A DNA stretch of 64,000 bases from an uncultured bacterium (GTDB lineage Bacteria; Omnitrophota; Omnitrophia; Omnitrophales; Aquincolibacteriaceae): positions 194 through 64,193 of the forward strand of contig CAYJSI010000004.1 in NCBI GenBank assembly GCA_964373045.1. Reading direction: 5' to 3'. The position numbers and the translations under genes were made by a program. This document shows, one piece after another, positions 1,624-62,958 of the stretch (its first letter is position 1; every line of letters starts with the position of its first letter). Under the pieces are notes generated by a model. It was not told where the DNA came from, did not search any database, and was given only the letters and a program-made list of their open reading frames with translations.

Positions 1624-2264
1624 AGGAAACACCCGAACAAAAGAAAAAACGGGTTTTAAAAATTGTCGGGCGGCTGCGCAAGAGCAATCCGAATCCGAAA
1701 TGTGCCTTGGATTTTTCAAACCCTTTGGAGCTTCTGGTGGCGACGATTCTTTCGGCACAGTGTACGGATAAACGGGTGAACCTGGTAACGCCGGCTGTTT
1801 TTAAAAAATATAAGACCGCCCGGGATTATGCCAAGGCAAATCCCAGAGAGTTTGAAGAACTCATCCACTCAACGGGATTTTATAAGAACAAGGCTAAAAG
1901 TATTTTGGGGGCTGCGCGGGAAATCGTGAGGCGTTTTAAGGAGAAAATGCCGGATCGTCTCGAGGATCTTGTCACCCTTCCTGGGGTCGGAAGAAAAACG
2001 GCGAACGTGGTCCTGGGAAATGCCTTCGGGGTGCCTGGGCTCACAGTCGATACGCACATGATCCGCATCAATCGCCTGCTTGGGCTGACCAGAGAAAAGG
2101 ATCCGGTTAAAATCGAGTTCGACCTCATGAAGATCATACCCGAAAAGGAATGGACGGATTACTCGCATCGGATCATCCATCACGGCCGCGTGCGCTGCAT
2201 CGCTAGGCGCCCGGACTGCCCGCACTGCGAAATCAAAGACCTTTGCCCTTCCGCCAAAACCTAA
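1620..2264 (+). CDS. nth: endonuclease III (DNA glycosylase/AP lyase)
   Basis: HhH-GPD motif LPGVGRKTANVVL. C-terminal Cys cluster C-x6-C-x2-C-x5-C for a 4Fe-4S centre. Size fits (214 aa). The start overlaps the PolX stop. Confidence 0.9.
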   Translation: MKETPEQKKKRVLKIVGRLRKSNPNPKCALDFSNPLELLVATILSAQCTDKRVNLVTPAVFKKYKTARDYAKANPREFEELIHSTGFYKNKAKSILGAAREIVRRFKEKMPDRLEDLVTLPGVGRKTANVVLGNAFGVPGLTVDTHMIRINRLLGLTREKDPVKIEFDLMKIIPEKEWTDYSHRIIHHGRVRCIARRPDCPHCEIKDLCPSAKT

Positions 2265-3520
2265 TGAAAACCGCACCGGAAACAACAAGTCTTCTCAAAA
2301 ATCTGGCCCTTGAAATGGGATTTGATGTCGTAGGCGTGACGGTTCCCAAGGCGCTTCGCGAGGGCGAAGAAGCGATTCGCGCCTGGACGGAGGAAAAACG
2401 GCACGGCACCATGAAATATCTGGAGGATTTTGAAGCGCGCAGAAACCGTTTTTATCAAGATTTTCCGGATGCAAAAAGTGTGATTGTGCTCGGAGTGAAT
2501 TATTATTCGAACGAGAGGATAACACGTCATCCTGAGGAGTTTCGCCGCAGGCGAGACGACGAAGGATCTCGAGATTCTTCGTCCCGCAGCAGCGGGACTC
2601 AGAATGACGTTTACGGCCGTGTGGCGAGGTATGCGTGGGGCAAGGACTATCATCAGGTGATCCGGAAGAAGCATGAATTGTTGATTGAAAGGTTGAATGA
2701 AATATTTGTAAGGGCGAGGCAGGCCGTGCCCTTACGATTTCAGTCGTGCGTGGATACCCAGCCCCTCCCTGAGCGATTTGCCGCCAAGCAGGCCGGACTC
2801 GGCTTTATCGGAAAACATACGGGACTTTTAAGCCAAAAATTCGGGCCCTGGCTTTTTCTCTCGGAAATTGTGACCAATCTCGAACTCGAAGAAGATATGC
2901 CCTCTGAAGGAAATTGTGGAACATGCGTTCATTGTCAAAAAATTTGTCCGACCGGTGCGTTAGATGAGGATTACAAAATCGATGCAAAAAAATGCATTGC
3001 CTATCTTACGATCGAACACAAAGGAGTCATTGCGCGCGAGCTTCGTCCCAAGATCAAAAACTGGCTTTTTGGGTGTGACGAGTGCCTTGCGATCTGCCCT
3101 TTTACCTCCAAACAAAAAGAGGGAAGCTGGCCGGAACTCAAGGCCTCGGCCGGCTTCGGGGAATGGATCGATTTAAAAGAACTTTTCGAGATTCCATCCA
3201 ACGCCGCTTACGAACGAAAATTTTTTGGCACAGCGCTCATGCGTGTAAGCCGTAAGCAAATGCTTCGCAATGCCTGCCTTGTGCTCGGCAATATTGGCAG
3301 AGAAAATCCTGTAGGGGCGAGGCAGGCCGTGCCCTTACTTATGAAAGCCCTCAGGGATCCCGCTTCGCTTGTACGGCTTCACGCCGCCTGGGCGCTCGGC
3401 CAGCTTCCCTTTGAGGAGGCCAAAAAGGCCCTCAAGCGACACCAGCCCCTCGAAGAAGACACCGAGGTTTTAAGAGAGATCCGATCTTCTCTCACGCAGG
3501 CGTGCACAGTCATCCCATAA
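2264..3520 (+). CDS. queG: epoxyqueuosine reductase QueG (B12/4Fe-4S), with low-complexity and repeat-derived insertions
   Basis: The ATG overlaps the nth stop (TAATG). Ferredoxin-type motif CGTCVHCQKICPTGAL plus a second Cys cluster. HEAT-like C-terminus (LRDPASLVRLHAAWALGQL). It is longer than typical QueG because of RRRRDDEGSRDSSS and two copies of a 28-nt palindrome. Confidence 0.8.
   Translation: MKTAPETTSLLKNLALEMGFDVVGVTVPKALREGEEAIRAWTEEKRHGTMKYLEDFEARRNRFYQDFPDAKSVIVLGVNYYSNERITRHPEEFRRRRDDEGSRDSSSRSSGTQNDVYGRVARYAWGKDYHQVIRKKHELLIERLNEIFVRARQAVPLRFQSCVDTQPLPERFAAKQAGLGFIGKHTGLLSQKFGPWLFLSEIVTNLELEEDMPSEGNCGTCVHCQKICPTGALDEDYKIDAKKCIAYLTIEHKGVIARELRPKIKNWLFGCDECLAICPFTSKQKEGSWPELKASAGFGEWIDLKELFEIPSNAAYERKFFGTALMRVSRKQMLRNACLVLGNIGRENPVGARQAVPLLMKALRDPASLVRLHAAWALGQLPFEEAKKALKRHQPLEEDTEVLREIRSSLTQACTVIP
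2708..2735. repeat. GTAAGGGCGAGGCAGGCCGTGCCCTTAC hairpin element inside queG (copy 1)
   Basis: The 8-bp inverted repeat GTAAGGGC/GCCCTTAC is read directly. A near-identical copy lies at 3311-3338. It is translated in-frame as RARQAVPL. Confidence 0.7.
3311..3338. repeat. GTAGGGGCGAGGCAGGCCGTGCCCTTAC hairpin element inside queG (copy 2)
   Basis: 27 of 28 nt match 2708-2735. It is translated in-frame as GARQAVPL. Confidence 0.7.
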
Positions 3521-5789: not shown

Positions 5790-5802
5790 TTGGAGGATTC
5801 GA

Positions 5803-6852
5803 ATGAATATCACGGAAGGAAAACTTAAGAAACTGGAAGCCTTGTCGGACTCACGCGGTATTATCCGGGCGGCGGCGATGGATCAGCGCGGTTCTTTAAG
5901 GAAGGCCATTGCCAAGGAAAAGGGCGTGGAAGCCAAAGAGGTGACGCGGGCCATGATGGAAGAATTCAAAGTGGCCGTAAGTAAAGTCCTCACACCTCAC
6001 GCAAGCGCCATTCTTCTTGACCCGGAATACGGACTTCCTGCAGCCAAGGCACGAAGCAAAAACGCCGGCCTCTTGCTCGCCTATGAATCGAGCGGCTATG
6101 ACAACACACGCCCGGGGAGAATTCCCGATCTCTTGGAAAATGAGACGGTGCGCACGATTAAAGAGGCGGGCGCGGATGCGATCAAGGTATTGATTTACTA
6201 CACGCCCCTTGATAAAAAAGAAGTGAATGACATCAAGCACGTTTTTACGGAGCGGATCGGCGCCGAATGCGCTGACCGCGATATTCCGTTCTTCCTCGAA
6301 TTTGTCGGCTACGATCCAAACGAAGGGGATGTGAATACGCTCGAATATGCCAAGCGCAAGCCCGAGGTCGTGGCAAAAAGCATGCAGGAATTTTCCAAGC
6401 CGGAGTATCAAGTGGATATCCTCAAGGTTGAAATCCCCATCAATATGAAATTCGTCGAAGGCGCGAAATCCTTTAAAGGGCAGAAGGCCTACACGAAAAA
6501 GGAAGCGATTAAGTATTTTCAGGAAACGGCGAAGGTCACGAAGAAACCCTTCATTTATTTGAGCGCGGGTGTGAGCGACGATGAATTCCGCGAGAGCCTT
6601 GAACTTGCGGCCGAGGCCGGCGTGAAATATAACGGGGTTCTTTGCGGACGCGCAACCTGGAAAGATGGGATACCCGTTTACGCCAGACAAGGTGTCAAGG
6701 CCCTTGAAAGTTGGCTCAAGGATCAGGGTGTTAAAAATATTCAGGCTTTGAACGCGGTGCTCGAGAAAAGCGCAAACCCCTGGTATGACGTCTACGGCGG
6801 GAAAAGCAACGTCAAACCCGTCGCAACAAAACGGCAAGCCGTTGGTGCTTGA
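5803..6852 (+). CDS. class I aldolase of the tagatose-1,6-bisphosphate aldolase (LacD/DeoC-like) family
   Basis: MDQRGSL ... LLDPEYG and the lysine-containing KVEIP region resemble LacD. The ATG at 5803 has an upstream GGAGG. Confidence 0.55.
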   Translation: MNITEGKLKKLEALSDSRGIIRAAAMDQRGSLRKAIAKEKGVEAKEVTRAMMEEFKVAVSKVLTPHASAILLDPEYGLPAAKARSKNAGLLLAYESSGYDNTRPGRIPDLLENETVRTIKEAGADAIKVLIYYTPLDKKEVNDIKHVFTERIGAECADRDIPFFLEFVGYDPNEGDVNTLEYAKRKPEVVAKSMQEFSKPEYQVDILKVEIPINMKFVEGAKSFKGQKAYTKKEAIKYFQETAKVTKKPFIYLSAGVSDDEFRESLELAAEAGVKYNGVLCGRATWKDGIPVYARQGVKALESWLKDQGVKNIQALNAVLEKSANPWYDVYGGKSNVKPVATKRQAVGA

Positions 6853-6855
6853 AAT

Positions 6856-6883
6856 GTAGGGGCGACTCGCGAGTCGCCCGTAC
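6856..6883. repeat. GTAGGGGC-family palindromic element (short form)
   Basis: GTAGGGGCGACTCGCGAGTCGCCCGTAC is a near-perfect hairpin in the spacer before the AKR gene. Confidence 0.7.
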
Positions 6884-6890
6884 TACCGCC

Positions 6891-7859
6891 ATGAAACACC
6901 GCATTCTCGGGAAAACGGGTCTTCGGGTTTCCGAAGTCGGTTTTGGCGCCTGGGCGATCGGGGGAACAAGCTATGGTCCCACCCGCGATGAAGATTCGCT
7001 CGATGCCCTCGAGGCCGCCTGGGAATCCGGGGTTAACTTTTTTGATACGGCCGATACCTACGGCCACGGTCACAGCGAAACTCTTCTCAGCCGTTTCCTA
7101 AAAAATAAACCGCGCCATCAAACCATCATCGCTTCAAAGGTGGGCTGGGATTTTTATCACGGCGCCAGCCGCAAAAATTTCGATCTCACTTATGTGCGTT
7201 TTGCGCTTGAGCAAAGCCTGAAGCGACTTGAACTTGAGACGATCGATCTTTATCAGCTTCACAACCCTTCGATTGAATTGATTAAGCGGGGTGAGCTCGT
7301 CGGCCTGCTTGAGGAGTTCAAAAGGGAAGGGAAGATCCGTTTCATCGGAACGTCCATCCATAGCAAAGACGAGGCCTTTGCCGCGATGGAGGATCCGCGG
7401 GTGGATACGCTTCAACTTGTCTTCAATCTCCTCGATCAGCGTATGGCCGAAGAGGTATTTCCTGAAGCTCAAGCGAAAAATATCGGCCTGATCGTGCGCG
7501 AACCCTTGGCCTTCGGCATGCTTACGGGCAAATACACGGCGGATCACGAGTTTCACAAAATAGATCACAGGCGCCGCTTCATGCGGGAGCAGCTGGAGAA
7601 CGATCTTAAAAAAATTGAAGCCGTCAAAGGTGTTTTATCAACGAAACATTTGCCGCTTGTGCGGGCAGCGCTTGAGTTTATTTTGAATTTTTATTCCCTT
7701 TCCACTGTGATCCCCGGCGCTAAATCAAGGGCTCAAGTGCTGGAGAATGTTCAGGCATCGAATGATCCGAAACTTCGGATGGAGGAATTGCGGCGTTTGA
7801 GGGAACTTTATTTGAAAGAACCGATTTTTCGGGAAATATTAAAATTTAAAATAATGTAG
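6891..7859 (+). CDS. aldo/keto reductase
   Basis: ILGKTGLRVSEVGFGAWAIGG and DTADTYGHGHSE are AKR signatures. Confidence 0.85.
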   Translation: MKHRILGKTGLRVSEVGFGAWAIGGTSYGPTRDEDSLDALEAAWESGVNFFDTADTYGHGHSETLLSRFLKNKPRHQTIIASKVGWDFYHGASRKNFDLTYVRFALEQSLKRLELETIDLYQLHNPSIELIKRGELVGLLEEFKREGKIRFIGTSIHSKDEAFAAMEDPRVDTLQLVFNLLDQRMAEEVFPEAQAKNIGLIVREPLAFGMLTGKYTADHEFHKIDHRRRFMREQLENDLKKIEAVKGVLSTKHLPLVRAALEFILNFYSLSTVIPGAKSRAQVLENVQASNDPKLRMEELRRLRELYLKEPIFREILKFKIM

Positions 7860-7918
7860 GGGCGCACCCGTGTGTGCGCCCTACGGATAGACGGGCAGAT
7901 ACATGGGTCTGCCCCTAC
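7856..7918. repeat. GTAGGGGC-family palindromic element (full two-hairpin form)
   Basis: GTAGGGGCGCACCCGTGTGTGCGCCCTAC followed by GGATAGACGGGCAGATACATGGGTCTGCCCCTAC. The outer ends are inverted (GTAGGGG/CCCCTAC). Confidence 0.75.
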
Positions 7919-10717: not shown

Positions 10718-11815
10718 GTGCCTTCTCTCTGGCAAAAAATCCGCCTCGATTTTCCCATGGTAAAAAAATGGATTTACCTGGATCATGCCTCAGGGGGACC
10801 CATTCCGCGGCCCGTACTTCAAGCCTCCCGGCGCTATTTAAAAGAACATTTTGAATTGGGCGATCTCTCCTGGGCCGCGTGGATCAAACGCCGCGAGGAG
10901 GTCCGGAAAAAAGCAGCACGCTTGATCAACGCCGACCCCTCTGAAATTACATTTATTCAGAGCACCTCTCAGGGGATGAATCTTATTGCCGACCTTTTGG
11001 CGGATCAGGGCGCGGTTCTGACCAACGCAAGCGAATTTCCCGCGAGCACGCTTCCCTGGATTTGGCGGAAGGCCAGGATGATTTGGCAGAATCCCGAAAA
11101 TTCTGCCATCAGGCTTGATACGCTCAGGAAACTTTTGTCGCCTGAAGTTAAAACAATTCTTACGAGCTTCGTGCAATACGCGACCGGGTTTCGCCAGGAT
11201 TTGGAAGCCCTTGGCAGAATCAAAGGGAACCGCTTTCTGGTGGTCAATGCCACGCAGGGATTCGGCGCTTTTCCGATTAATGTGAAGCGCGCCAAAATCG
11301 ATTTCCTCTGCACCAATAGTTACAAGTGGCTTATGGCGGGCTACGGCGGCGGCATCCTTTATATGAAGAAGGATTGGATGCGAAAATTCAAACCCTCCCA
11401 AGTAGGGTGGCGGAGCATGCGGGAGCCTGAGCTCATGGACAATCGGCGCCTCGATCTTAAACCGGAGGCCTCCCGCTACGAACTTGGCTGCCCGAGTTTT
11501 CCCTCCATTTTTGCCTTGGGGGCGGCGGTGGATTATCTTTCGGAGATCGGCATCGAAAAAATCAGCCGCCGGATTTTAGAACTCACCGATTTCCTTATCG
11601 ACGGCCTTGAGCGAAGCGGGCTTGAAGTGGTTTCACCGCGCGAGCGGACGCATCGTTCGGGAATCGTTGTGTTTAAAATGAGCCACGCCGAAAAAGTATG
11701 CCGCCGGCTTCTTCGTGATCATATTTATGTCTCACCGCGCGGGGCCGGGATCCGCGTCGCGCCGCATTGTTATAATACATTTGAGGAAATTGAAACATTC
11801 CTAAATGCGCTGTAG
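10718..11815 (+). CDS. class V aminotransferase / cysteine desulfurase-like PLP enzyme
   Basis: Fold-type I PLP enzyme with a SYKW lysine region. It sits next to the MoeZ-like gene. Confidence 0.7.
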   Translation: MPSLWQKIRLDFPMVKKWIYLDHASGGPIPRPVLQASRRYLKEHFELGDLSWAAWIKRREEVRKKAARLINADPSEITFIQSTSQGMNLIADLLADQGAVLTNASEFPASTLPWIWRKARMIWQNPENSAIRLDTLRKLLSPEVKTILTSFVQYATGFRQDLEALGRIKGNRFLVVNATQGFGAFPINVKRAKIDFLCTNSYKWLMAGYGGGILYMKKDWMRKFKPSQVGWRSMREPELMDNRRLDLKPEASRYELGCPSFPSIFALGAAVDYLSEIGIEKISRRILELTDFLIDGLERSGLEVVSPRERTHRSGIVVFKMSHAEKVCRRLLRDHIYVSPRGAGIRVAPHCYNTFEEIETFLNAL

Positions 11816-11878
11816 GGGCGCACCTATGTGTGCGCCCGTTGTGCGGTCCACGAGTCGACACGTGGGTCGACCCCTGCA
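11812..11878. repeat. GTAGGGGC-family palindromic element
   Basis: GTAGGGGCGCACCTATGTGTGCGCCC ... GTCGACACGTGGGTCGACCCCTGCAGC. Confidence 0.75.
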
Positions 11879-14780: not shown

Positions 14781-14840
14781 CACCAAATCAGTTGGTGCCA
14801 GGCACCGTGCCAGGCACGGTGCCTGGCACCATTAGGGTTT
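14781..14840. repeat. GGTGCCWGGCACC tandem palindrome element (terminator-like)
   Basis: GGTGCCAGGCACCGTGCCAGGCACGGTGCCTGGCACCATTAGGGTTT immediately 3' of era. Confidence 0.8.
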
Positions 14841-19275: not shown

Positions 19276-20763
19276 GTGATCCGAAAAACCTCTCCTCAGG
19301 ATATTCAACCCTACCTTACGGATGCCTCTAACTTTCAAGGCGGTCATGCCGAGGGAGTTGCTTTTCCGGAGTCCGAGAAAGAAGTCGTTGAGTTTATAAA
19401 AGAGGCGCATGCACACGGAACCCCTGTAACTATTGCAGGGAATGGAACCGGTTTAACCGGCGCCCGCGTCCCGACAGGGGGCTGGGTGCTTGCCACGGAT
19501 CGCCTTTCAAAAATCAAGCGGATCGAAAAAGACCCGGTGCGAAGATCCTCTTACGCCGTTATCGAGCCGGGATGCCAGCTTAAAACCCTTCAAGACGCGC
19601 TTGGCTCGCTAGCTCTTTTTTATCCTCCGGACCCCACCTCCTTCAAATCTTTTTTGGGAGGCAATGTGGCCACGAACGCCTCGGGTCCGCGCTCCTTTCG
19701 CTATGGGCCGACGCGCGATTTCATTCGAAGATTGCGGATAGTACTGGCGGACGGATCCCTTCTTCATCTTGAGCGCGGAAAAATTTTTGCGAACGCCGTC
19801 GGTGAAATCGAAATCCCGGCCTCAGGTTCCAAAATTAAAATCAAGATCCCGAGTTATGCCATGCCTCCCATTAAACACACGGCGGGTTATTTTGCGAAAC
19901 CTAAGATGGATGCCATCGATCTTTTTATCGGGTCTGAGGGGACGCTGGGTATGGTGACAGAAATCGAAGTCGCCTTAGTGAATCCGCCCCGGGACTATTT
20001 TAGTTATGTCCTTTTTTTCGCAAGCGAGGAAGCTTCTTGGAATTTCGCGGAGGATGCGCGATTCGTGAGCCGCCGGCACCGGGGCGAGCGAAACGATGCC
20101 GCAATCCAAGCCCGCGCCTTGGAATATCTAGATGGCCCTTCTCTTGATTTCATCCGCGCAAAATATCCTACGGTGCCCCGTGAGGCCCGCGCCGCTATTT
20201 ATTTAGAGCAAGAGTGCCAGCCGGAAACGAAAGATTTATTGATCGATCGATGGGGCGCTCTCTTTGAAAAACATAAGGCGCTTGTGGAAGATGTGTGGCT
20301 GGGTGAAAGTGAGGAGGAACATGAAAAATTCAGAGCCTTCCGCCACGAAGTGCCGCTTGAAGTGAAGGCCTTCCTCGCCCAACACGGACAAAGCAAAGTC
20401 GGAACCGATATGGCGGTGCCTGAGAAGGCCTTTAAAGATTTAATGCTCTTTCAAAGAAAGCGACTGAATGACCTTGGGATTCGGAATATCACCTTTGGCC
20501 ACATCGGAGATTGCCATGTTCACCTCAATATTCTCGCGCAAAACGGGGAAGAGCATGCCCGGGCCTGGGGCCTCTACCATGAATTGATTCAAAAGGCCCT
20601 TCAGTTGGGGGGCACCATCGCCGCCGAGCATGGTGTCGGCAAGCTGAAAAAATGTTATCTTGTCGAAATGTTTGGCCAGAAGGGAATCGAAGAGATGGCG
20701 GCTGTCAAAAAAGCGTTTGACCCTAAGATAATCTTGGGGCGGGGGAATATATTGGATATGTAG
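19276..20763 (+). CDS. FAD-linked oxidase (GlcD/D-lactate dehydrogenase family)
   Basis: FAD_binding_4 motif VTIAGNGTGLTG. Confidence 0.8.
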   Translation: MIRKTSPQDIQPYLTDASNFQGGHAEGVAFPESEKEVVEFIKEAHAHGTPVTIAGNGTGLTGARVPTGGWVLATDRLSKIKRIEKDPVRRSSYAVIEPGCQLKTLQDALGSLALFYPPDPTSFKSFLGGNVATNASGPRSFRYGPTRDFIRRLRIVLADGSLLHLERGKIFANAVGEIEIPASGSKIKIKIPSYAMPPIKHTAGYFAKPKMDAIDLFIGSEGTLGMVTEIEVALVNPPRDYFSYVLFFASEEASWNFAEDARFVSRRHRGERNDAAIQARALEYLDGPSLDFIRAKYPTVPREARAAIYLEQECQPETKDLLIDRWGALFEKHKALVEDVWLGESEEEHEKFRAFRHEVPLEVKAFLAQHGQSKVGTDMAVPEKAFKDLMLFQRKRLNDLGIRNITFGHIGDCHVHLNILAQNGEEHARAWGLYHELIQKALQLGGTIAAEHGVGKLKKCYLVEMFGQKGIEEMAAVKKAFDPKIILGRGNILDM

Positions 20764-20822
20764 GGGCCGACCCATGTGTCGGCCCTGTGGTCCACGGGCG
20801 GACACGCGGGTCCGCCCCCTAC
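20760..20822. repeat. GTAGGGGC-family palindromic element
   Basis: GTAGGGGCCGACCCATGTGTCGGCCC ... GGGCGGACACGCGGGTCCGCCCCCTAC. Confidence 0.75.
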
Positions 20823-21884: not shown

Positions 21885-23126
21885 ATGAGCCAAAAGTCCC
21901 CCATCATTCGAAAAAGCTTTGGCCTTAAAGAAGAGATCCGTCCGCAGCTCAAAGCCAGCTATCACAGCAACTTAATCGATCAGATTAAAACGAACGGATT
22001 TCAAATGAAATCCGGCCGCTTGACGCTCAAGCTCGCTGAGGAGTTTGGTTTTTGCTACGGAGTCGACCGGGCCATCGACTATGCCTATGAGACCCGTGCC
22101 CAATTTCCGGGCAAGCGAATTTTTATCACCAATGAAATCATCCACAATCCCCGCGTGAACGCCAAGCTTCAGGAAATGGGGATCCAGTTTCTCTCGGGCC
22201 CCTACGCTTGCGGGATTACCGCGGACGACATCCGCGAGGATGACGTCGTGATTTTCCCCGCCTTTGGAACCACGCTAAAAGAGCTCGATCAGCTTCAAAA
22301 ACGAGGCTGCGTGCTTGTGGACACGACCTGTGGCTCGGTGATGAGTGTGTGGAAGCGGGTCGAGTCTTACAGCCGTGATGCCTTTACCTCCGTCATTCAC
22401 GGCAAGTATGATCACGAAGAGACCATGGCCACAAGCTCTCGGGCCACCCAGTATCCCGGCGGTAAATATCTTATTGTGCGTGACAAAGTCCAGGCACAAA
22501 CCGTTTGTGATTATATTGAGGACCGGGGTGAGCGCGAAGCCTTCTTAAAGGAATTTGCCTCGAGTCTATCCGCCGGTTTTGATCCTGATCAGGATCTTGC
22601 GCATCTCGGCTGCGCGAATCAAACGACCATGCTTTCGAGCGAATCCTTGGAGATTGCCAGTATGCTTCAGGAATCCATGCGCAAGCGTTTTGGCGCCGAG
22701 GAGCTCCCCAAGCGATTCCGTCATTTTGATACGATTTGTTCGGCGACTCAGGAGCGCCAGGACGCTGTTTTTAAGCTCGTTCGCGCCGGTGTGGACCTCA
22801 TGATTGTGGTGGGCGGTTACAATTCGAGCAATACGGGGCACCTGGTGGAAATATCCCTCGATTTTTGTCCCGCCTTTCACGTGAAGGATGCCGAGTGCAT
22901 TATTTCGAGGAATCTCATTCAGCACAAAAAAGTTTTCAGCTCGGAGATTATCGAAACTGCAAACTGGCTTCCCGCGGGAGAGATGAGAATCGGTGTGACA
23001 GCCGGGGCCTCGACTCCGAATCGTGTGATTGAAGAAGTGATCGAACGAATCATTGCCGTAGGGGCCGACCCGCGTGTCGGCCCGTCAATCACAGGGCGGA
23101 CACATGGGTCCGCCCCTACGTTATGA
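21885..23126 (+). CDS. ispH: 4-hydroxy-3-methylbut-2-enyl diphosphate reductase IspH (long form); C-terminus runs into a palindromic repeat
   Basis: Conserved Cys residues are present, along with HNPRVN, the long insert, and TAGASTP near the end. The last ~22 aa are encoded by repeat 23058-23119. Confidence 0.85.
   Translation: MSQKSPIIRKSFGLKEEIRPQLKASYHSNLIDQIKTNGFQMKSGRLTLKLAEEFGFCYGVDRAIDYAYETRAQFPGKRIFITNEIIHNPRVNAKLQEMGIQFLSGPYACGITADDIREDDVVIFPAFGTTLKELDQLQKRGCVLVDTTCGSVMSVWKRVESYSRDAFTSVIHGKYDHEETMATSSRATQYPGGKYLIVRDKVQAQTVCDYIEDRGEREAFLKEFASSLSAGFDPDQDLAHLGCANQTTMLSSESLEIASMLQESMRKRFGAEELPKRFRHFDTICSATQERQDAVFKLVRAGVDLMIVVGGYNSSNTGHLVEISLDFCPAFHVKDAECIISRNLIQHKKVFSSEIIETANWLPAGEMRIGVTAGASTPNRVIEEVIERIIAVGADPRVGPSITGRTHGSAPTL
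23058..23119. repeat. GTAGGGGC-family palindromic element (forms the 3' end of the ispH ORF)
   Basis: GTAGGGGCCGACCCGCGTGTCGGCCC ... GGGCGGACACATGGGTCCGCCCCTAC. Confidence 0.75.
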
Positions 23127-25337: not shown

Positions 25338-25940
25338 ATGCAAAGAAACGAGCAAGGGTTTACCCTTCTTGAAGTGGTGGTGGCCGTGGCCATATCGTCT
25401 GTGATCTCTTACGCCCTTTTTCTTGCGCTTCGCATGGGGGATGAACAGATCCGAACCACGGACCTGAAAATGACGATTCAGGATTCCATGCGCGAGGGTC
25501 TTTACAAAATGATTCAGGAGATCCGCCAGTCGGCGCCCGGCAAAGTGAATATTGATTCCTCCGGCAACAGCATCTCCTTTTCTATACCGGACCCGAACAA
25601 TGCAGTCGGAGACGATTACAGCGCGAACTGGGACGATGCCATCCAAGTCTCTTATGCCTTAGGAGGAGACGACGGCAATCAAATCATGCGAACGGTGTCC
25701 AATGACGTAACCACGAAGGTGATGGCCAATGATGTGACGGGCGTAACGTTCGCGGGCAATGCCGGCAATCCGACGCTCGTGACCCTTACCATGAATGTTC
25801 AGCGGACGCTAACCAACGGGCGGCTTGTTCCGAGTACGCCCCTGCAGATGACGGGGCAGGCCGAGGTTCGAAATGTCTCCAATGTTGACGATTGCACTGA
25901 TGATGACAACGATAACGTTTGTGACGAGAATGAAACCTAA
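25338..25940 (+). CDS. type IV minor pilin (PilW/PilV-like)
   Basis: QGFTLLEVVVAVAISS is a class III signal. Confidence 0.8.
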   Translation: MQRNEQGFTLLEVVVAVAISSVISYALFLALRMGDEQIRTTDLKMTIQDSMREGLYKMIQEIRQSAPGKVNIDSSGNSISFSIPDPNNAVGDDYSANWDDAIQVSYALGGDDGNQIMRTVSNDVTTKVMANDVTGVTFAGNAGNPTLVTLTMNVQRTLTNGRLVPSTPLQMTGQAEVRNVSNVDDCTDDDNDNVCDENET

Positions 25941-25953
25941 GGGGGAGAAAAGA

Positions 25954-27156
25954 ATGATTCCATCAAAAGAGATGAAAGGTGTTTTAGGGAACCGGAAAGG
26001 ATTCATTTTACTTACGAGCTATCTCTTAATTTCGATGCTCTCCATTTTTTCTCTCGGGCTTTTTGCCAGGAGCGCGGCCTTTATTCAATCGGTCGAGCGA
26101 AATAAAAATAAGATCATCGCCTTCCAAAAAGCCGAGGCGGGGCTCGATCAAGCGATCGTAGAACTCACAGACGACCAAAACTATTCAGGGATGGCTTACA
26201 TCCCGCTGGGAGACGAGGGAGGCTACAGCGTTACGGTTTGTCCGCCGACCTGCGGGGGTGATCTCACCGAGCCGACGGATGCCAATGTACGTATGATTCA
26301 AACCACGGGTTTTGCTCCTGACAATGACCCAACCTCCACGGCCTATAGCAGCCGTTCCGTGATTTCTCATGTCAATGTAGCAGGCTCCTCGGGTTTCGAT
26401 TTTGCTATCTTTGCCGGAGATGATATCTCCATGAGCGGGAACGCAGTGGTTGATAGTTACAACTCTGACGAGGGTGCTTACAATGCAGCCACGGCGTACG
26501 ATAACGGAAATATCGGAACGGATAGCACAACGGCTGATACTGTGTCGTTATCAGGGAATGTCGCAGTGAATGGGGATGTGACCGTGGGCCCGAATGGAAA
26601 CCCCAGCAGCGTTGTCACGACCACTGGCAATGCTGTCATCTCCGGAACGGGGTCATCCGCGACCCAAGCTAAAAACTACCAGCTGATCGGAAGCAGCGAT
26701 ACCTCCCTTGGCGCCCTTAGTTTAAGCGGGAATACGAATTATGTCTTGCCCACAGGAAGCTACCGCTACAGCTCCTTAAAAATTAGCGGAAACGCTAAAC
26801 TGACGACCACCGGGGCGGTCAAGATTTATGTGGATGGCACCATCAGCATTTCGGGAAATGGTGTTTCTACGGCCAGCAACAAGCCGTCTAATTTCCTGCT
26901 CTATTCCACGGCCGGTGCGAGTGTCAGCTTATCAGGCAACGGAAATTTTTATGGGGCTGTTTACGCGCCCGAGTCTGATGTGAGCATCTCCGGAAACGGG
27001 CAGACTTACGGTGCGGTGGTTTCCGAAACCTATTCGCAAACCGGAAACGGTAAAGTCCATTTTGATGAATCTTTGAACGATTTAGAAGGCGCCACAGACA
27101 GCAATAGCACGCCCAATCTGCTTGCCTGGCGGGAGACGAATACGGCGGCTGCTTAG
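25954..27156 (+). CDS. PilX-like minor pilin with a Gly/Asn/Ser-rich beta-solenoid-like C-terminal domain (paralog A)
   Basis: PilX_N-like signature KGFILLTSYLL ... RNKNKIIAFQKAEAGLDQAI. The repeats are SGNxxxxGAVYAP. RBS GGGGGAG. Confidence 0.7.
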   Translation: MIPSKEMKGVLGNRKGFILLTSYLLISMLSIFSLGLFARSAAFIQSVERNKNKIIAFQKAEAGLDQAIVELTDDQNYSGMAYIPLGDEGGYSVTVCPPTCGGDLTEPTDANVRMIQTTGFAPDNDPTSTAYSSRSVISHVNVAGSSGFDFAIFAGDDISMSGNAVVDSYNSDEGAYNAATAYDNGNIGTDSTTADTVSLSGNVAVNGDVTVGPNGNPSSVVTTTGNAVISGTGSSATQAKNYQLIGSSDTSLGALSLSGNTNYVLPTGSYRYSSLKISGNAKLTTTGAVKIYVDGTISISGNGVSTASNKPSNFLLYSTAGASVSLSGNGNFYGAVYAPESDVSISGNGQTYGAVVSETYSQTGNGKVHFDESLNDLEGATDSNSTPNLLAWRETNTAAA

Positions 27157-27174: not shown

Positions 27175-28374
27175 GTGATGAACGACATGACAGGAAAAAA
27201 GATAACCCGCGCGGGCCAGAAGGGATTTATCCTGCTCACAAGTTATCTTTTAATCTCCATGATTTCCATTTTTTCTCTCGGGCTTTTTGCCAGGAGCGCG
27301 GCCTTTATTCAATCGGTCGAGCGAAATAAAAATAAGATCATCGCCTTCCAAAAAGCCGAGGCGGGGCTCGATCAAGCGATCGTAGAACTCACAGACGACC
27401 AAAACTATTCAGGGATGGCTTACATCCCGCTGGGAGACGAGGGAGGCTACAGCGTTACGGTTTGTCCGCCGACCTGCGGGGGTGATCTCACCGAGCCGAC
27501 GGATGCCAATGTACGTATGATTCAAACCACGGGTTTTGCTCCTGACAATGACCCAACCTCCACGGCCTATAGCAGCCGTTCCGTGATTTCTCATGTGAAT
27601 ATCGCCGGTTCTTCGGGTTTTGACTTTGCTGTTTTTGCCGGAGACAGCGTTACCTTGAACGGGACCACCTCTATCGATAGTTACAATTCCAACGACGGGC
27701 CTTACGGCGCAAACACGGCCTCAGCGAATGGCGATGTTGGAACGGATAGCGTGACCACTTCCACCGTGAGCTTGAACGGAAGTTCGACCATCAATGGCGA
27801 TGTGACGGTGGGCCCCAGCGGCAATCCAACGGATGTCATCTCCGCTTCGAGCCAATCGCTCATTACGGGCTCTCAAACGTCGGCATCCACCGAAAAAAAT
27901 TATCAGGTGATGACAAGCAGCAGCACTTCGCTTGGATCCCTTTCGGTTTCAGGGAGCACGAAGCTTACTTTGGCGGCCGGAACCTACCGCTACAGCTCGC
28001 TTAAGATTACGGGAAACGCTAAAATAACAACAACGGGTGCGGTCAAAATTTATGTCGACGGCACGGTGAATATCGGCGGAGGAGGCATTGTGAATGCGAC
28101 CGCGACACCAAGCAACCTGCTTGTTTACGCAACGACGAGCGCCAGCGTCAGCGTTTCCGGGAACAGCGATTTTTACGGGGCCGTTTACGCCCCCGCCTCG
28201 GCCGTAAGCGTTTCCGGGGCCTCTGATTTCTACGGGGCCGTGGTGGCAGACTCCTTTACTCAAAGCGGTGAATTCCATTACGATGAGGCCTTAAACGATT
28301 TAGAAGGCGCCACAGACAGCAATAGCACGCCCAATCTGCTTGCCTGGCGGGAGACGAATACCTCGGCCGCGTAA
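27175..28374 (+). CDS. PilX-like minor pilin (paralog B)
   Basis: Same architecture as paralog A. 332 nt at the 5' end and 68 nt at the 3' end are identical to paralog A. Confidence 0.7.
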   Translation: MMNDMTGKKITRAGQKGFILLTSYLLISMISIFSLGLFARSAAFIQSVERNKNKIIAFQKAEAGLDQAIVELTDDQNYSGMAYIPLGDEGGYSVTVCPPTCGGDLTEPTDANVRMIQTTGFAPDNDPTSTAYSSRSVISHVNIAGSSGFDFAVFAGDSVTLNGTTSIDSYNSNDGPYGANTASANGDVGTDSVTTSTVSLNGSSTINGDVTVGPSGNPTDVISASSQSLITGSQTSASTEKNYQVMTSSSTSLGSLSVSGSTKLTLAAGTYRYSSLKITGNAKITTTGAVKIYVDGTVNIGGGGIVNATATPSNLLVYATTSASVSVSGNSDFYGAVYAPASAVSVSGASDFYGAVVADSFTQSGEFHYDEALNDLEGATDSNSTPNLLAWRETNTSAA

Positions 28375-29692: not shown

Positions 29693-29720
29693 AATGTAGC
29701 TTAAAAAGCTTCAGGCAAAT

Positions 29721-29757
29721 GGTGCCAGGCACGGTGCCAGGCACCGTGCCTGGCACC
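29721..29757. repeat. GGTGCCWGGCACC tandem palindrome element
   Basis: GGTGCCAGGCACGGTGCCAGGCACCGTGCCTGGCACCATTAGG, between queD and addB. Confidence 0.8.
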
Positions 29758-29767
29758 ATTAGGTTCT

Positions 29768-41040: not shown

Positions 41041-41131
41041 AAGCTTCTTGCGCCCGTAGCTCCCGCCACAAATCATGGCGGGCAGGCAATTGGAACAATC
41101 CAATCTCGCTACGGGCACTGAAAAAGATTAC

Positions 41132-41205
41132 GCGCCCGTAGCTCAATTGGATAGAGCGTCACCCTCCGAAGGTGAAGGTTACGTGTTCAACTCACGTCGG
41201 GCGCA
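41132..41205 (+). tRNA. tRNA-Arg (anticodon CCG)
   Basis: Cloverleaf read by hand: acceptor GCGCCCG/CGGGCGC, D-arm GCTC/GAGC, anticodon stem TCACC/GGTGA with loop CTCCGAA, T-arm ACGTG/CACGT with TTCAACT, discriminator A. CCA is not encoded. Confidence 0.85.
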
Positions 41206-41220
41206 TTCTCAATAAAGATC

Positions 41221-42357
41221 ATGAATTTATCCGATTTTGATTTTAAACTTCCCGAAGGGCGTATCGCGGTTTTCCCGCCCGAAGATCGAGCCAGCGCCCG
41301 TCTCCTCAGAGTCGACAAACAGTCAGGAACTATTTCGCACCACGTTTTCCGCGACCTTCCTCAATTTCTTCAAGCCGGAGATCTGCTTGTGCTGAATGAT
41401 ACGAAAGTGATTCCCGCAAGAATTTTCGGCCAAAAAGAGACCGGAGGCCGGGTGGAGGCCCTCCTCCTTGAGGATTTGGGAGAAGGGAAGTGGGAAGCCT
41501 TGCTCCGTTCCGGAGGACGAATTAAAAAAAATTCGATGCTCGCTTTTGGAGAAAACGGCCTGAGGGTTGAGGCCGAGGTTTTAGATGACGCAAGGCCGGA
41601 TTCAGGGGAACGCCTTTTGGATTTCAATGTAGGGGCCGATCTGCGCCCGCCCACCGGCGAGGCGGGTGTCGGCCCGCATACGGGCGGACACATGGGTCCG
41701 TCCCTACGACAAATTTTTAAAAAAATCGGGCATATACCCCTGCCGCCCTACATCGACCGCCCGGATTCTCCGATCGATCGGAAAATGTACCAAACGGTTT
41801 TTGCTGAAAAAGAGGGGGCGGTAGCATCGCCCACCGCCGGTCTTCATTTTGATGAAAAACTTCTCGATAAGATTCGAGCCAAAGGAATCGAAATAGCTTT
41901 TGTCACACTTCACGTCAGTTACGGGACGTTTCAGCCCATTGCAGTCGAAAATTTAGCCGAGCACAAAATGTTTGAAGAACGATTTGAAATCACTGCCGAA
42001 ACTGCCGGCCAAATCAACCGTGCCTTGAGCGAAAAGCGGCGAATCATTGCTTGCGGGACTACGGTGGTAAGGGTATTAGAGTCTGCCTGTAGGGGCGCGG
42101 TCCCCGCGCCCGGGACTCAGGGCGGGGGAACTTTACCCCTGCAACCCATGAAGGGCAGGACCCGGCTTTTTATTTATCCTCCCTATGAATTTAAAATCGT
42201 GCAGGGGCTGATTACCAATTTTCATCTGCCCAAAAGTTCTCTTCTGCTTTTGGTGAGCGCGTTCTTGGGCCGCCAAAAATTATTAAATGCCTATGACGAA
42301 GCGATCCGTGAAGGATATCGTTTTTATAGTTACGGGGATGCGATGGTGATCTTGTGA
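41221..42357 (+). CDS. queA: S-adenosylmethionine:tRNA ribosyltransferase-isomerase QueA, carrying two in-frame palindromic-element insertions
   Basis: Collinear with E. coli QueA (GHIPLPPYIDRPD, TAGLHFDE, TNFHLP, YRFYSYGDAM). It is about 25-30 aa longer, with the extra residues at 41629-41707 and 42089-42146. Confidence 0.9.
   Translation: MNLSDFDFKLPEGRIAVFPPEDRASARLLRVDKQSGTISHHVFRDLPQFLQAGDLLVLNDTKVIPARIFGQKETGGRVEALLLEDLGEGKWEALLRSGGRIKKNSMLAFGENGLRVEAEVLDDARPDSGERLLDFNVGADLRPPTGEAGVGPHTGGHMGPSLRQIFKKIGHIPLPPYIDRPDSPIDRKMYQTVFAEKEGAVASPTAGLHFDEKLLDKIRAKGIEIAFVTLHVSYGTFQPIAVENLAEHKMFEERFEITAETAGQINRALSEKRRIIACGTTVVRVLESACRGAVPAPGTQGGGTLPLQPMKGRTRLFIYPPYEFKIVQGLITNFHLPKSSLLLLVSAFLGRQKLLNAYDEAIREGYRFYSYGDAMVIL
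41629..41707. repeat. GTAGGGGC-family palindromic element inside queA
   Basis: GTAGGGGCCGATCTGCGCCCGCCCACCGGCGAGGCGGGTGTCGGCCCGCATACGGGCGGACACATGGGTCCGTCCCTAC. Confidence 0.75.
42089..42146. repeat. GTAGGGGC-family palindromic element inside queA (second copy)
   Basis: GTAGGGGCGCGGTCCCCGCGCCC ... CCCCTGCAAC; the end type matches the element at 11812. Confidence 0.65.
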
Positions 42358-50643: not shown

Positions 50644-50760
50644 GTAGGGGTCGACCCATGTGTCGACCCGTGTTATCTCGCCCACCCATATTGGGCGGGG
50701 CAACCCCGCCCCTACAATCCAATTGCATTATGACGGGCAGACACGCGGGTCTGCCCCTAC
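50644..50760. repeat. compound GTAGGGGC-family palindromic element (three hairpins)
   Basis: GTAGGGGTCGACCCATGTGTCGACCC ... GCCCACCCATATTGGGCGGGG ... GACGGGCAGACACGCGGGTCTGCCCCTAC. Confidence 0.75.
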
Positions 50761-58574: not shown

Positions 58575-58603
58575 GGTGCCCGGCACCGTCGGTGCCTGGC
58601 ACC
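58575..58603. repeat. GGTGCCWGGCACC tandem palindrome element
   Basis: GGTGCCCGGCACCGTCGGTGCCTGGCACC, 3' of hppA. Confidence 0.8.
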
Positions 58604-58624
58604 GTCTGGTTTACATAAACCGGC

Positions 58625-60315: not shown

Positions 60316-60396
60316 CACCTTCTGGGTTTTGAAAGCACGCGGGGATGACGTTGTAGGGTGCCAGGCTCCGACGGTGCCTGGCACCATCTGGGTTTC
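60316..60396. repeat. two GGTGCCWGGCACC-family palindromes with TCTGGGTTT tails
   Basis: GCGCCAGGCACCTTCTGGGTTTT ... GGGTGCCAGGCTCCGACGGTGCCTGGCACCATCTGGGTTTCGG. Confidence 0.75.
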
Positions 60397-60420
60397 GGAT
60401 TCCTGGGGCGCACCGTCAAT

Positions 60421-62958
60421 ATGGATTCCATGTCCGAGAAAAAAATCTACCTAGCCATCCACGGTCACTTCTATCAGCCGCCGCGCGAAAATCCCTGGCT
60501 CGAGGCCATTGAGCTTCAGGAGAGCGCAAGTCCTTTCCACGATTGGAATGAGCGCATCCACCATGAGTGCTATCTTCCGAACGCCGAAGCCCGTGTGCTC
60601 GATGAAAAAGGTTTGATCCTTGATATCGTGAACAATTTTGAGGATATCAGTTTTAACTTTGGGCCTACCCTGATGTCCTGGCTTCGGAGCCATCACCCTG
60701 AGACCTATCGGCGCATTCTGGAGGTCGATCGCATCAGCCAGGTCGAGCACGCGGGACACGGCAATGCCATGGCCCAGGTCTATCATCACATCATTATGCC
60801 GCTTGCAAGCCGACGCGATCAGGTCACGCAGGTGCGCTGGGGGATCGAGGATTTTCGTTTTCACTTCCGCCGGGATCCGGAATCCATTTGGCTGCCTGAA
60901 ACGGCTTGTCATCAGGAAACACTCGAAGTCTTGATGGAGGCGGGAATCCGCTTCGTCATTCTTGACGCCCATCAAGCGGAGGCGGTGCGTGTCATGGGGG
61001 CTGAGGATTGGCAGGATGTCTCTGTCGGCACCCTTGACCCGCGATTTCCCTACCGTGCCTTTTCTAAAAATGACCCTGAAAAATTCATCGACATTTTTTT
61101 CTATGACGGCCCCGTTGCCCGGGCTGTCGGTTTTGGAGATCTGGCTTTTGATGCCAAGCGCTTTGCGGAGCGTCTTCAAGGGTCGGTGCGTAAGGATCTC
61201 AATGCTCCCCAGTTGATTCATGTGGCCACCGATGGCGAAACCTACGGCCATCACAAGCCCTTTGGGGACCGTGTCCTGGCTTATTTAACACGCGTGGAAG
61301 CCCCCCGGCGGGGGTTTCGGCTTGTGAACTATGGGGAATTTCTTGATCTTTCGCCGCCCGAATTCGAGGTGCGCTTAAAGCCGGGCGAGGAAGGGGAAGG
61401 GACCTCCTGGAGTTGTGCGCACGGGGTTAGGCGCTGGAAGGATCACTGCGGTTGCCGGGGCGGCGGTCCCGCAGAGTGGAAACAACACTGGCGAGGGCCG
61501 CTTCGAGATTCCTTGGATTGGCTGAGAGATCAGCTCGCCACTATTTTTGAAACCGTGGGTTCAAGGTATTTGAGGGATGTATGGGAGGTGCGTGATCACT
61601 ATATTCAAGTCCTCCTCAACCCGACGGAGGATGCCCTCCAGCTCTTTTTTGATCGGGAGGCAAGGCATTCCTTAAATCGGGAAGAAAAAGTGGTGTGTCT
61701 TAAGCTCCTTGAGATGCAGCGTCACGCCATGATGATGTACACAAGCTGCGGGTGGTTTTTTACGGAAATCTCAGGCATTGAAACCGTTCAGATTCTGCAG
61801 TATGCGGCCCGCGCCCTTGAGCTGGCGGAAGAATTGACCGAAAGCGGCGGGGAGCTGGAGGAGGAATTCTTAAGTTATTTGTCTTCTGCCCCGAGCAATG
61901 TGCCGGAGTTTCGTGACGGACGGGGTGTTTACGAGCGTTTCGTTCGGCCGACTAAAGCCTCCCAGGCGCATCTTGTGAGCGCTTATGCGATCGAGTCTCT
62001 TTTTGAAGATTATTTTGGCAACAGAACCCAATTTGATTTTTATACGTCTCACCTGGAGGTCCTTGACCGCCGTAAGGAATCCTCGGGTAATAGCACGCTT
62101 CACTTTGGAAGGGTGAAGGCAGCTTCGATGAAGACCCTGGAGGAGCGGGATTTTGTTTTTGCGGTGGTTCAAATCGGGCTCTATGATTTCCGCTGTTCGC
62201 TTTGCCCCTTTGCCGAGATTCAGGAGATTGAGGCGGTGGAAAAAAAGCTCTTTCACGCGCTGCACAAGTTGCACCTTGTGGATTTGCTGAAACAAATCGA
62301 CGAGACCTTTGGCGAAAAATACTTTACGCTAAAAGATCTACCCATGCTCGAGCGGAGAAAATTGATCGCCTACCTCACCCGCGAAGTGATTGAAAAAATA
62401 GGATCTGTTTATGAAAACCTTTATGATGAAAATAAAAGGATGAACGAAATCTACCGATCGATTCAACTTCCCATCCCGGAGCAGGTCCGCTATGCCGTGG
62501 AGCATACCCTCCGTAAGCGATTAAAAATCGCCGTCGAACAGCTTGCCCTTGCGGGCTTTGATCCCCATAAGGTGACGCCCCTTTACCGCGTCCTGGAAGC
62601 GGCCCATTCTTTCGATGCGGAGCTCAAAACCAAGAATGAAGAAATCGCACGTTTGCTCAGCGAAGAACTGGCTGCACGCACAAAAAAACTTTTGGGGAAG
62701 CTCGAGCCGGAGGTTTTGGCAGAATGCCTTTATATTCCGAGGATTGCCCGAAAAATCGGAGTCGAGCTTGATCTCAGAAGCGCCCAAAATGATCTTTTTT
62801 TTCTTGCCAGACGCTGGTGCGAGCATCCCGAGACACTTCCTGAAGGAATCCATTCTTTAGCCGATACCCTTTTGCAGCTCATGCAGGAGCTTTATCTTCA
62901 TTCCGGAGAGTTTCAAAAACTTATGCATCATCCAAAACCAAGCGCCTTGTCTTTATGA
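60421..62958 (+). CDS. glycoside hydrolase family 57 enzyme (alpha-glucan branching/4-alpha-glucanotransferase-like) with long C-terminal extension
   Basis: HGHFYQPPREN and the catalytic DGETYGHH are GH57 signatures. 846 aa from the ATG at 60421. Confidence 0.8.
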   Translation: MDSMSEKKIYLAIHGHFYQPPRENPWLEAIELQESASPFHDWNERIHHECYLPNAEARVLDEKGLILDIVNNFEDISFNFGPTLMSWLRSHHPETYRRILEVDRISQVEHAGHGNAMAQVYHHIIMPLASRRDQVTQVRWGIEDFRFHFRRDPESIWLPETACHQETLEVLMEAGIRFVILDAHQAEAVRVMGAEDWQDVSVGTLDPRFPYRAFSKNDPEKFIDIFFYDGPVARAVGFGDLAFDAKRFAERLQGSVRKDLNAPQLIHVATDGETYGHHKPFGDRVLAYLTRVEAPRRGFRLVNYGEFLDLSPPEFEVRLKPGEEGEGTSWSCAHGVRRWKDHCGCRGGGPAEWKQHWRGPLRDSLDWLRDQLATIFETVGSRYLRDVWEVRDHYIQVLLNPTEDALQLFFDREARHSLNREEKVVCLKLLEMQRHAMMMYTSCGWFFTEISGIETVQILQYAARALELAEELTESGGELEEEFLSYLSSAPSNVPEFRDGRGVYERFVRPTKASQAHLVSAYAIESLFEDYFGNRTQFDFYTSHLEVLDRRKESSGNSTLHFGRVKAASMKTLEERDFVFAVVQIGLYDFRCSLCPFAEIQEIEAVEKKLFHALHKLHLVDLLKQIDETFGEKYFTLKDLPMLERRKLIAYLTREVIEKIGSVYENLYDENKRMNEIYRSIQLPIPEQVRYAVEHTLRKRLKIAVEQLALAGFDPHKVTPLYRVLEAAHSFDAELKTKNEEIARLLSEELAARTKKLLGKLEPEVLAECLYIPRIARKIGVELDLRSAQNDLFFLARRWCEHPETLPEGIHSLADTLLQLMQELYLHSGEFQKLMHHPKPSALSL

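Follow-up and report, generated by a model that had tools for sequence, protein, structure and literature searches.

The 64-kb window (the whole stretch of DNA that was analysed), from a metagenome-assembled genome of Candidatus Omnitrophota, contains queA on the forward strand, preceded by a tRNA gene and followed by tgt, the start of which (42354) overlaps the end of queA by 4 nt; the gene order queA-tgt-yajC-secDF is also that of the relative L084. Two palindromic repeat elements lie inside the queA open reading frame, and the features of this part of the window are:

41132-41205: tRNA-Arg(CCG), upstream of queA
41221-42357, plus strand: queA open reading frame, 378 aa, intact, host of both elements
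41629-41707, plus strand: element 1, 79 nt, two REP units in a composite, REPIN-like doublet; folding energy as DNA -25.3 kcal/mol (z = -2.67)
41629-41675, plus strand: left arm of element 1, GTAG and the stem GGGCCGA/TCGGCCC
41682-41707, minus strand: right arm of element 1, an inverted REP unit reading GTAGGGACGGACCCATGTGTCCGCCC on the minus strand, with one mismatch to the 26-nt pattern
42089-42142, plus strand: element 2, 54 nt, encoding 18 aa; whole-element fold z = -2.65
42089-42111, plus strand: left arm of element 2, a 23-nt REP variant, GTAG GGGCGCGG TCC CCGCGCCC, with a perfect 8-bp stem and no mismatches
42112-42142, plus strand: spacer and decayed right arm of element 2, GGGCGGGGGAACTTTACCCCTGC

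Residues 3-377 of the queA product align with the whole of the Pfam profile Queuosine_synth (PF02547, positions 1-322 of 322, E = 1.8e-127), and the protein matches the solved QueA structures 1vky, 1yy3 and 1wdi both in alignments to the PDB entries (E of 1e-85 to 1e-81) and when a structure model of it is compared with them by Foldseek (E of about 1e-30). Its best-named homologues are all from Omnitrophota, a phylum of which very few members have been cultured. The shared residue is present at all 62 of the columns that are invariant across 120 homologues, and the reading frame runs across both inserts without a stop or a frameshift; judged by its sequence, the gene encodes a full-length and apparently functional QueA in which the family-invariant residues are kept. 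The PDB alignments are interrupted at the two places named in the preliminary description of this DNA: residues 136-162 of the query are unmatched where the Thermotoga maritima protein has about five residues, and 10-12 extra residues are present in the query at about residues 290-305.

Element 1 comprises codons V137 to L162 and the first base of R163, reads GTA GGG ... CCC CTA C in the frame of queA, and encodes the 26-residue peptide VGADLRPPTGEAGVGPHTGGHMGPSL. The stem of its left arm is identical to that of the copies at 20760 and 23058, and the left-arm loop is 29 nt long, being swollen by an additional CCCGCC..GGCGGG hairpin. The right arm is identical at 25 of 26 positions to the copy at 23094-23119 of the window, as against 11-19 of 26 for the arms found in relatives at the same site (site 1; the loop that holds element 2 is site 2). 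Element 2 begins at the second base of C290 and ends with the first base of Q308. The intact form of its right part occurs at site 1 of the related gene in L002, as GGGCGGGGGAACCCCACCCCTAC (z = -4.40 for the L002 copy), and by comparison the right arm in the window has CCCCA changed to TTTA and CTAC changed to CTGC. Both copies in queA fold more weakly than the intergenic copies of the window. The limits previously assigned to element 1 prove correct, as does the start of element 2; the end of element 2, earlier placed at 42146, overshoots by 4 nt.

Together the elements encode 26 + 18 = 44 residues of QueA. Compared with those of the closest relatives with empty sites, the loops measure 33 against 11 aa at site 1 and 25 against 14 aa at site 2, giving a net gain of about 22 and about 11 residues, or about 33 in all. 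Since 44 residues are encoded but only about 33 are gained, about 11 native loop residues are missing and the elements are not pure insertions, in which respect the preliminary description is corrected. In an AlphaFold model based on 120 homologues (mean pLDDT 89.3), insert 1 is coil between the strand at residues 130-136 and the helix at 162-169, and insert 2 is coil between the helix at 280-293 and the strand at 310-314, with pLDDT values by ten-residue block of 53 and 49 (residues 141-160) and of 57 (residues 291-300). Mapped in this way onto the QueA structure, both inserts are low-confidence coil between predicted secondary-structure elements, at what the model indicates to be structurally permissive sites.

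The two elements belong to a repeat family with ten loci in the window, whose members open with GTAGGGGC and close with GCCCCTAC. The opening sequence occurs 13 times in the window where 1.08 occurrences are expected, the 26-nt pattern GTAGGGGCNNACCCNNGTGTNNGCCC, with up to three mismatches, ten times (0 expected), and the 23-nt variant twice (0.08 expected); the match of the queA inserts to the family is far above chance. A unit consists of GTAG, an 8-bp stem GGGCNNAC, a 6-nt loop CCRYGT and GTNNGCCC, and the two variable positions of the stem always compensate (CC/GG, CG/CG, GC/GC, AG/CT, TC/GA). Units are 23-28 nt long, with stems of 7-8 bp and loops of 3-8 nt, and in the window the z values for folding lie between -2.65 and -5.47. 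The listed units bear the GTAG head, with GTAA, GCAG or GTAC in a few. Inverted doublets, with the heads facing outwards, are common, 62-66 nt in length and folding as a single long hairpin (z of -3.7 and -5.5); doublets are found at 41629-41707 and at the four loci so described below, where the members of the family outside queA are listed:

2708-2735, plus strand: single 28-nt palindrome in queG, in frame (VRARQAVPL)
3311-3338, plus strand: second 28-nt copy in queG, in frame (VGARQAVPL), 97% identical to the copy at 2708
6856-6883, plus strand: single 28-nt palindrome, intergenic, 3 nt past the stop of the open reading frame 5782-6852
7856-7918, plus strand: REP doublet; TAG at 7857-7859 is the stop of the aldo/keto reductase open reading frame 6849-7859
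11812-11877, plus strand: REP doublet; TAG at 11813-11815 is the stop of the aminotransferase open reading frame 10718-11815
20760-20822, plus strand: REP doublet; TAG at 20761-20763 is the stop of the FAD-oxidase open reading frame 19276-20763; z = -3.72
23058-23119, plus strand: REP doublet encoding the last 21 aa of IspH/LytB (VGADPRVGPSITGRTHGSAPT); z = -5.47
50644-50760, plus strand: three or four clustered REP units in the intergenic region that separates thiG from an isopropylmalate/isocitrate dehydrogenase gene

Five of the ten loci are translated (two in queA, two in queG and one in ispH) and three more overlap a stop codon, while the only cleanly intergenic ones in the window are 6856-6883 and the cluster at 50644-50760; the predominantly extragenic location that is a trait of REPs does not hold for the family within the window. 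Both copies in queG (2243-3520) coincide with gaps in the alignment to Bacillus subtilis QueG, and the stop codon of ispH lies 5 nt past the end of its doublet. Neither a target-site duplication nor an extended target motif was found, there being no consistent direct repeat beside any copy, and the signal in the flanks is limited to a pyrimidine at position -1, seen in 86% of 162 units. A search of the window against Rfam gave no match at the elements, its sole hit being a tRNA. Removal of the elements at the RNA level, in the manner of introns, was considered and rejected, the copies in confirmed genes all keeping the reading frame.

The best explanation of these results, to which we would give a probability of about 0.8, is that the extra segments of QueA are translated copies of a GTAG-headed REP/REPIN family, of the kind that RayT-type enzymes mobilise in trans. 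In the work on GTAG REPs, REPINs and RayT (Nunvar 2010, PMC2817692; Bertels & Rainey 2011, PMC3116915; Di Nocera 2013, PMC3733652), such repeats have a 5' GTAG head followed by a GC-rich interrupted palindrome, form inverted doublets, exist in many dispersed copies, hug the 3' ends of genes and donate the TAG of the head as a stop codon, the last being a property of the GTAG superfamily in Di Nocera 2013; all of these features are shared by the family described here. RayT genes flanked by the same repeats are found here in metagenomic relatives. The window family differs in that 5 of its 10 loci lie in coding sequence and in that no RayT was found in the window. When the window unit GTAGGGGCNNACCCRYGTGTNNGCCC was compared, by peptide, with the peptides listed in the supplement for 24 published GTAG families there was no match, and none of the papers searched links Omnitrophota with REP-type repeats.

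Location inside genes is itself a documented minority behaviour of REPs. According to Di Nocera 2013 (PMC3733652), REPs lying wholly within open reading frames are most numerous in Opitutus terrae, intragenic dimers encode 20-30 aa, and two inserts per open reading frame occur. The O. terrae cases resemble those in the window in that single units and dimers, contributing 7-30 aa, lie inside the reading frames of known proteins, sometimes twice in the same one, and QueA is among the hosts: Additional file 3 of that paper lists it both in O. terrae (Oter_2037, aa 101-124 of 398, a GTAG-19 dimer) and in Rickettsia conorii (RC0283, aa 170-178). The O. terrae QueA insert differs in belonging to another REP family with another peptide (GTGVPPV...RAGRPCH), and its position, judged by residue number, is probably different; nor is recurrence at a single site across lineages described in that paper. 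Intragenic GTAG and CGTC REPs are listed there in many species, and the earlier remark that such behaviour is rarely reported outside Rickettsia was overstated.

The preliminary description had likened the queA inserts to Rickettsia palindromic elements (RPEs), and as regards behaviour the likeness holds, but as regards identity the elements are GTAG-headed REP/REPIN units and not relatives of RPEs. RPEs are hosted by an alphaproteobacterial intracellular lineage, and we know of no transposase for them. They too are palindromic selfish repeats that lie in frame in housekeeping genes at fold-compatible positions, with R. conorii QueA among the hosts according to the table of Di Nocera 2013 (PMC3733652). 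By their descriptions the two are set apart, and no kinship in sequence is expected, the elements in the window being 28-79 nt long and GTAG-headed, whereas RPEs were about 150 bp as first reported (Ogata 2000 and 2002, in PMC10969869) and RPE-4 and RPE-6 are assigned to the CGTC-tagged class in PMC3733652. The same 2024 review (PMC10969869) calls in-frame fusions of MITEs 'not unusual' and RPEs the extreme case. MITEs such as ERIC, BOX, QMITE1 and those of Anabaena are likewise small non-autonomous repeats that can be read as part of host open reading frames, but they have terminal inverted repeats derived from DDE-type insertion sequences and target-site duplications, neither of which is seen in the window family.

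If the elements are indeed REPs and REPINs, they would be short non-autonomous palindromes of the sort that RayT (Y1, IS200-like) transposases move in trans, and mobilisation in this organism, which we infer, would depend on a RayT whose gene lies in another part of the genome. Three circumstances may account for their persistence inside queA: the GC-rich unit would present a stop (TAG) in one forward frame only; the two loops are probably the most length-tolerant places in QueA; and selection would have purged every disruptive insertion. The surviving copies would then behave as near-neutral, slowly decaying passengers, of which element 2 appears to have lost its right hairpin already.

No RayT was detected in the window by tblastn with the RayT of the metagenomic locus L151 and two further RayT/IS200 sequences. 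The same two further queries gave one weak hit in L151, which led to the RayT open reading frames. The exact 26-nt REP pattern retrieved at least 120 metagenomic stretches, and four of these loci (L112, L151, L160 and L205) contain open reading frames with the Pfam domain Y1_Tnp, with REPs immediately outside and inside them; many of the homologues carry the JGI name 'REP element-mobilizing transposase RayT'. In each of the four RayT reading frames the HuH motif is followed at once by a pair of in-frame REPs. Homologues were sought with a query from which the REP-encoded segment had been deleted, and a loop of 15-97 aa (median 46) follows HuH in 110 of the 111 hits that have both anchors, the sole exception, P0271, having a short loop of 4 aa. 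Among the RayT loops listed, those shown carry peptides of REP type (VGADLRVCP...GAHAGAPL, VGAPPCGCP...GRPHGAAPT and RRGEPCVRP...GDHKDRPYG), and some of the loops found in a first search, with a query that retained the segment, contain tandem arrays. No mention of an in-frame REP inside RayT was found in Nunvar 2010 (PMC2817692) or in the passages of Di Nocera 2013 (PMC3733652) that were consulted. Among the metagenomic REP units as a whole, 31 of 163 (19%) lie inside long open frames; this figure was dismissed, most of these frames being spurious and GC-rich or the units lying upstream of the real start, and the only convincing in-frame REPs among these loci are those in L110 (in an OEP protein) and in the RayTs.

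Inserts of at least 6 aa cluster at three loops of QueA in an alignment of 120 homologues, mostly from Omnitrophota. Such inserts occur at site 1 in 11 of the proteins, at site 2 in about 38, and in about 18 at a third loop, which follows AAFL. Four insert-bearing relatives (L002, L003, L085 and L086) were compared with the window at the DNA level. At site 1 all four have GTAGGG...CCCCTAC elements (CCCTTAC in L086) in the same frame and at the same codon position after F-[DNH]; three of the four have an element at site 2 as well, and share the 3' junction CCC CTA CAA there. A doublet of the 23-nt type is common to site 1 of L002 and site 2 of the window, while L085 has one single-hairpin variant at both sites, a 12-bp stem with z = -8.35, and an additional copy near residue 88. 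The closest relatives of the window QueA, P0003, P0004 and P0005 (63% identity by search and 68-69% over aligned columns), have native loops that are short (11 and 14 aa), and neither GTAGGGG nor CCCCTAC occurs in 21 kb of L084, the locus of P0003. The pattern statistics, the identity between copies within the genome, these empty sites in P0003/L084 and the coil in the structure model together bear out the principal claim made earlier, that queA contains two in-frame, stop-free copies of a palindromic repeat; relatives with extra residues at the two sites do carry the palindromic signature, and there is no frameshift in queA.

The relationships of these genes were assessed with a neighbour-joining tree (200 bootstrap replicates, 313 core columns, both loops excluded). 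The carriers of an element at site 1 are monophyletic in 0 of 200 replicates. A clade of 12 taxa, most of them REP-bearing, has 100% bootstrap support, and the window sequence falls inside it in 0.5% of replicates. Around the window sequence the tree is weakly resolved, the best sister group having 21% support; its recurrent sister groups, which were listed for 161 of the 200 replicates, all consist of empty-site QueAs. Because the carriers are scattered, the sister groups have empty sites and the elements are lineage-specific, we read this pattern of sequences as occupation or re-occupation of the same two QueA loops on more than one occasion, and not as a single inherited relic.

The junctions of the elements are strikingly regular. 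In all five genes with an element at site 1 a single residue separates the conserved Phe from the element, and six residues (eight in L003) separate the element from the IG[HR] motif, so that the residual native residues are alike in four of the five genes; such regularity would be odd for fully independent insertions and fits better with shared ancestry or replacement. It is possible, if on the whole unlikely, that one ancient insertion per site took place in an early Omnitrophota queA and was inherited vertically, its sequence being refreshed by gene conversion or by RayT-mediated replacement from the current REP variant, and that the empty alleles represent secondary losses. The identity of the 3' junctions across lineages, CCC CTA C (P-L-[RHQ]) at site 1 and CCC CTA CAA (PLQ) followed by [PS]x[KR]G at site 2, would be explained in this way, as would the almost wholly REP-bearing state of the 12-taxon clade at site 2 and the apparent decay intermediates within that clade, such as VGARHAVSLQ, LGARCPSSLQ and LGRDIKSSQGK. 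However, the scatter of the carriers over the QueA tree speaks against it, and excision from the filled form cannot yield the empty-site alleles, in which the native loops are longer and of ordinary kind. Moreover, element 1 has a right arm far closer to its own-genome copy than to its counterparts at that site in relatives, which means that an input of new REP sequence is needed under any model.

At least four other divergent Omnitrophota queA genes have their own REP variants in the same loops, which we read as repeated re-occupation or turnover of permissive, and perhaps REP-seeded, sites. Since the RayTs almost always contain an in-frame cognate REP, the family could be regarded as pre-adapted for read-through, and it is tempting to suggest, tentatively and at somewhat less than even odds, that it is 'born translated', the REP being carried in frame by its own RayT and re-occupying permissive host loops with lineage-specific variants by homing to, or replacing, the resident copies. 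If this were true, REP and RayT together would long have been generating variation in protein loops in different phyla, and the RayT-internal copy could be a master copy or a site of autoregulation.

It is improbable that the inserts have been domesticated, either as Gly/Pro/Arg-rich loops that aid QueA, for example in contacting tRNA, or as DNA or RNA hairpins that control the queA-tgt operon, be it by attenuation, by pausing or by protection from RNase. The recurrent occupancy of the same two loops in several lineages and the perfect stems kept in some relatives, including that of L085, would be in keeping with a function, and REPs are known to act as structural elements in RNA and DNA (PMC3733652). 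Against this, the peptides are wholly different between lineages in sequence and in length (9 to 34 aa), inserts are absent from many close QueAs, and the same family decorates unrelated genes and gene ends; the window copies in queA fold worse than the intergenic ones, element 2 being without one of its hairpins, and model confidence in the inserts is low. That a repeat-induced misassembly placed REPs in queA, or that queA is a decaying pseudogene, is very improbable indeed: REPs are repeats, the source is a metagenome-assembled genome and the exact sequence is known from one sample only, but a contig from a second assembler (Logan assembly L001, run ERR4904390) is 100% identical to the window over 1772 nt that include both inserts, queA genes from four other samples have elements at the same sites, and the full-length, in-frame reading frame keeps all invariant columns and overlaps tgt in a conserved operon.

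The finding is a real new example of an already described behaviour, in a new phylum, and concerns a REP family for which no published match was found; the behaviour was known already from the intragenic GTAG and CGTC REPs, including those in QueA, that appear in Di Nocera 2013 (PMC3733652). In-frame 'protein-coding palindromes' are thereby extended to Omnitrophota, and the agent is an ordinary GTAG REP/REPIN family with nothing about it that is specific to Rickettsia. QueA emerges as a repeated host across three phyla: the case described here is from Omnitrophota, and the tables of the 2013 paper add Verrucomicrobia and Alphaproteobacteria. For annotation, an insert rich in G, P, A and R that fits VGA...PL[RHQ], in a protein otherwise conserved, can be identified as a REP that is read through, and need not be mistaken for an error or a new domain. 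The occupation of the same codon in divergent lineages and the near-universal in-frame REP in RayT also bear on how REPINs choose their targets and how they persist.

A second palindromic family, with sequences beginning GGTGCCAGGCACC, was also noticed in the window; it is intergenic at three of its four loci there, and the fourth overlaps the start of a listed open reading frame.

In-frame units of their own REP were found directly after the HuH motif of RayT-type Y1 transposases of the GTAG REP family, among proteins P0121-P0293 and in four ORFs on retrieved metagenomic stretches (L-numbers):
L151 2291-2959, minus strand, RayT ORF with internal REP
L112 5600-6187, plus strand, RayT ORF with internal REP
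L160 ~189-818, plus strand, RayT ORF with internal REP
L205 6942-7641, minus strand, RayT ORF with internal REP

The arrangement around the internal unit is HFHGI.. VGADLRVCP ... GAHAGAPL ..VQWFKT. When the REP segment was removed from the query of a protein search, 110 of the 111 anchored RayT homologues carried such a loop after HuH, of median length 46 aa; the sole short loop, of 4 aa, was that of P0271. Some RayT homologues (P0142, P0144) contained 5-8 REP units in tandem. No mention of an in-frame REP within RayT was found in the REP/RAYT papers checked, PMC2817692 and passages of PMC3733652.

Within the window, queG (epoxyqueuosine reductase, ORF 2243..3520) hosts two in-frame GTAG-family palindromes:
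2708-2735, 28 nt, encoding VRARQAVPL
3311-3338, 28 nt, encoding VGARQAVPL

The second copy overlaps the stretch A-V-P-L-L, which falls in the HEAT-repeat region (Pfam match) and whose aligned counterpart in B. subtilis QueG is S-A-L-P-E-L. At gene ends, the C-terminal 21 aa of IspH are encoded by a REP doublet (23058-23119), and the TAG of a GTAG head provides the stop codon of three genes:
7857-7859, aldo/keto reductase gene
11813-11815, class-V aminotransferase gene
20761-20763, FAD-linked oxidase gene

A second palindromic family of the window, TGGTGCCAGGCACCGTGCCAGGCACGGTGCCTGGCACCA, contrasts in location with the GTAG family, three of its four copies lying between ORFs:
14793-14836, TGGTGCCAGGCACCGTGCCAGGCACGGTGCCTGGCACCA copy
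29720-29763, TGGTGCCAGGCACCGTGCCAGGCACGGTGCCTGGCACCA copy
58575-58612, TGGTGCCAGGCACCGTGCCAGGCACGGTGCCTGGCACCA copy
60348-60394, TGGTGCCAGGCACCGTGCCAGGCACGGTGCCTGGCACCA copy, overlapping the listed GTG start of ORF 60358..62958

In other Omnitrophota, additional QueA loops hold inserts too, and some inserts derive from different repeat families (L085 4320-4383; L005 ~1870-1985; proteins P0020, P0062, P0043 and P0108). For example, the L005 insert reads SCHPERSEGS...AGRQGAQNDK, and that of P0020 and P0062 PLPKRERG...SPSLREKAGM. Across the phylum, QueA appears to act as a general sink for short repeats.

The spoIID/tRNA-Arg gap (41050-41118) contains an inverted repeat, GCCCGTAGC...GCTACGGGC, with an inner hairpin CCCGCC/GGCGGG. 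Its outer arm is formed by the 13 nt GCGCCCGTAGCTC, a copy of the tRNA 5' end (41132-41144). The structure may represent either a GTAG element that has degenerated or the scar of an old integration.

Two direct repeats of 38 nt (3715-3752 and 4199-4236, 97% identical) bracket a minus-strand ORF, which has a second feature beside it:
3795-4172, minus strand, 125-aa ORF
4391-4583, plus strand, next to that ORF, by eye only resembling the N-terminal part of a type I restriction-modification methylase (HsdM) that has been truncated

Repeats, ORF and HsdM-like fragment together may be the remnant of a mobile cassette. Elsewhere, two paralogous genes lie side by side (25873-27156 and 27175-28374); the repeats they share, up to 300 nt long and 95% identical (25992-26291 and 27216-27515), indicate a recent tandem duplication.
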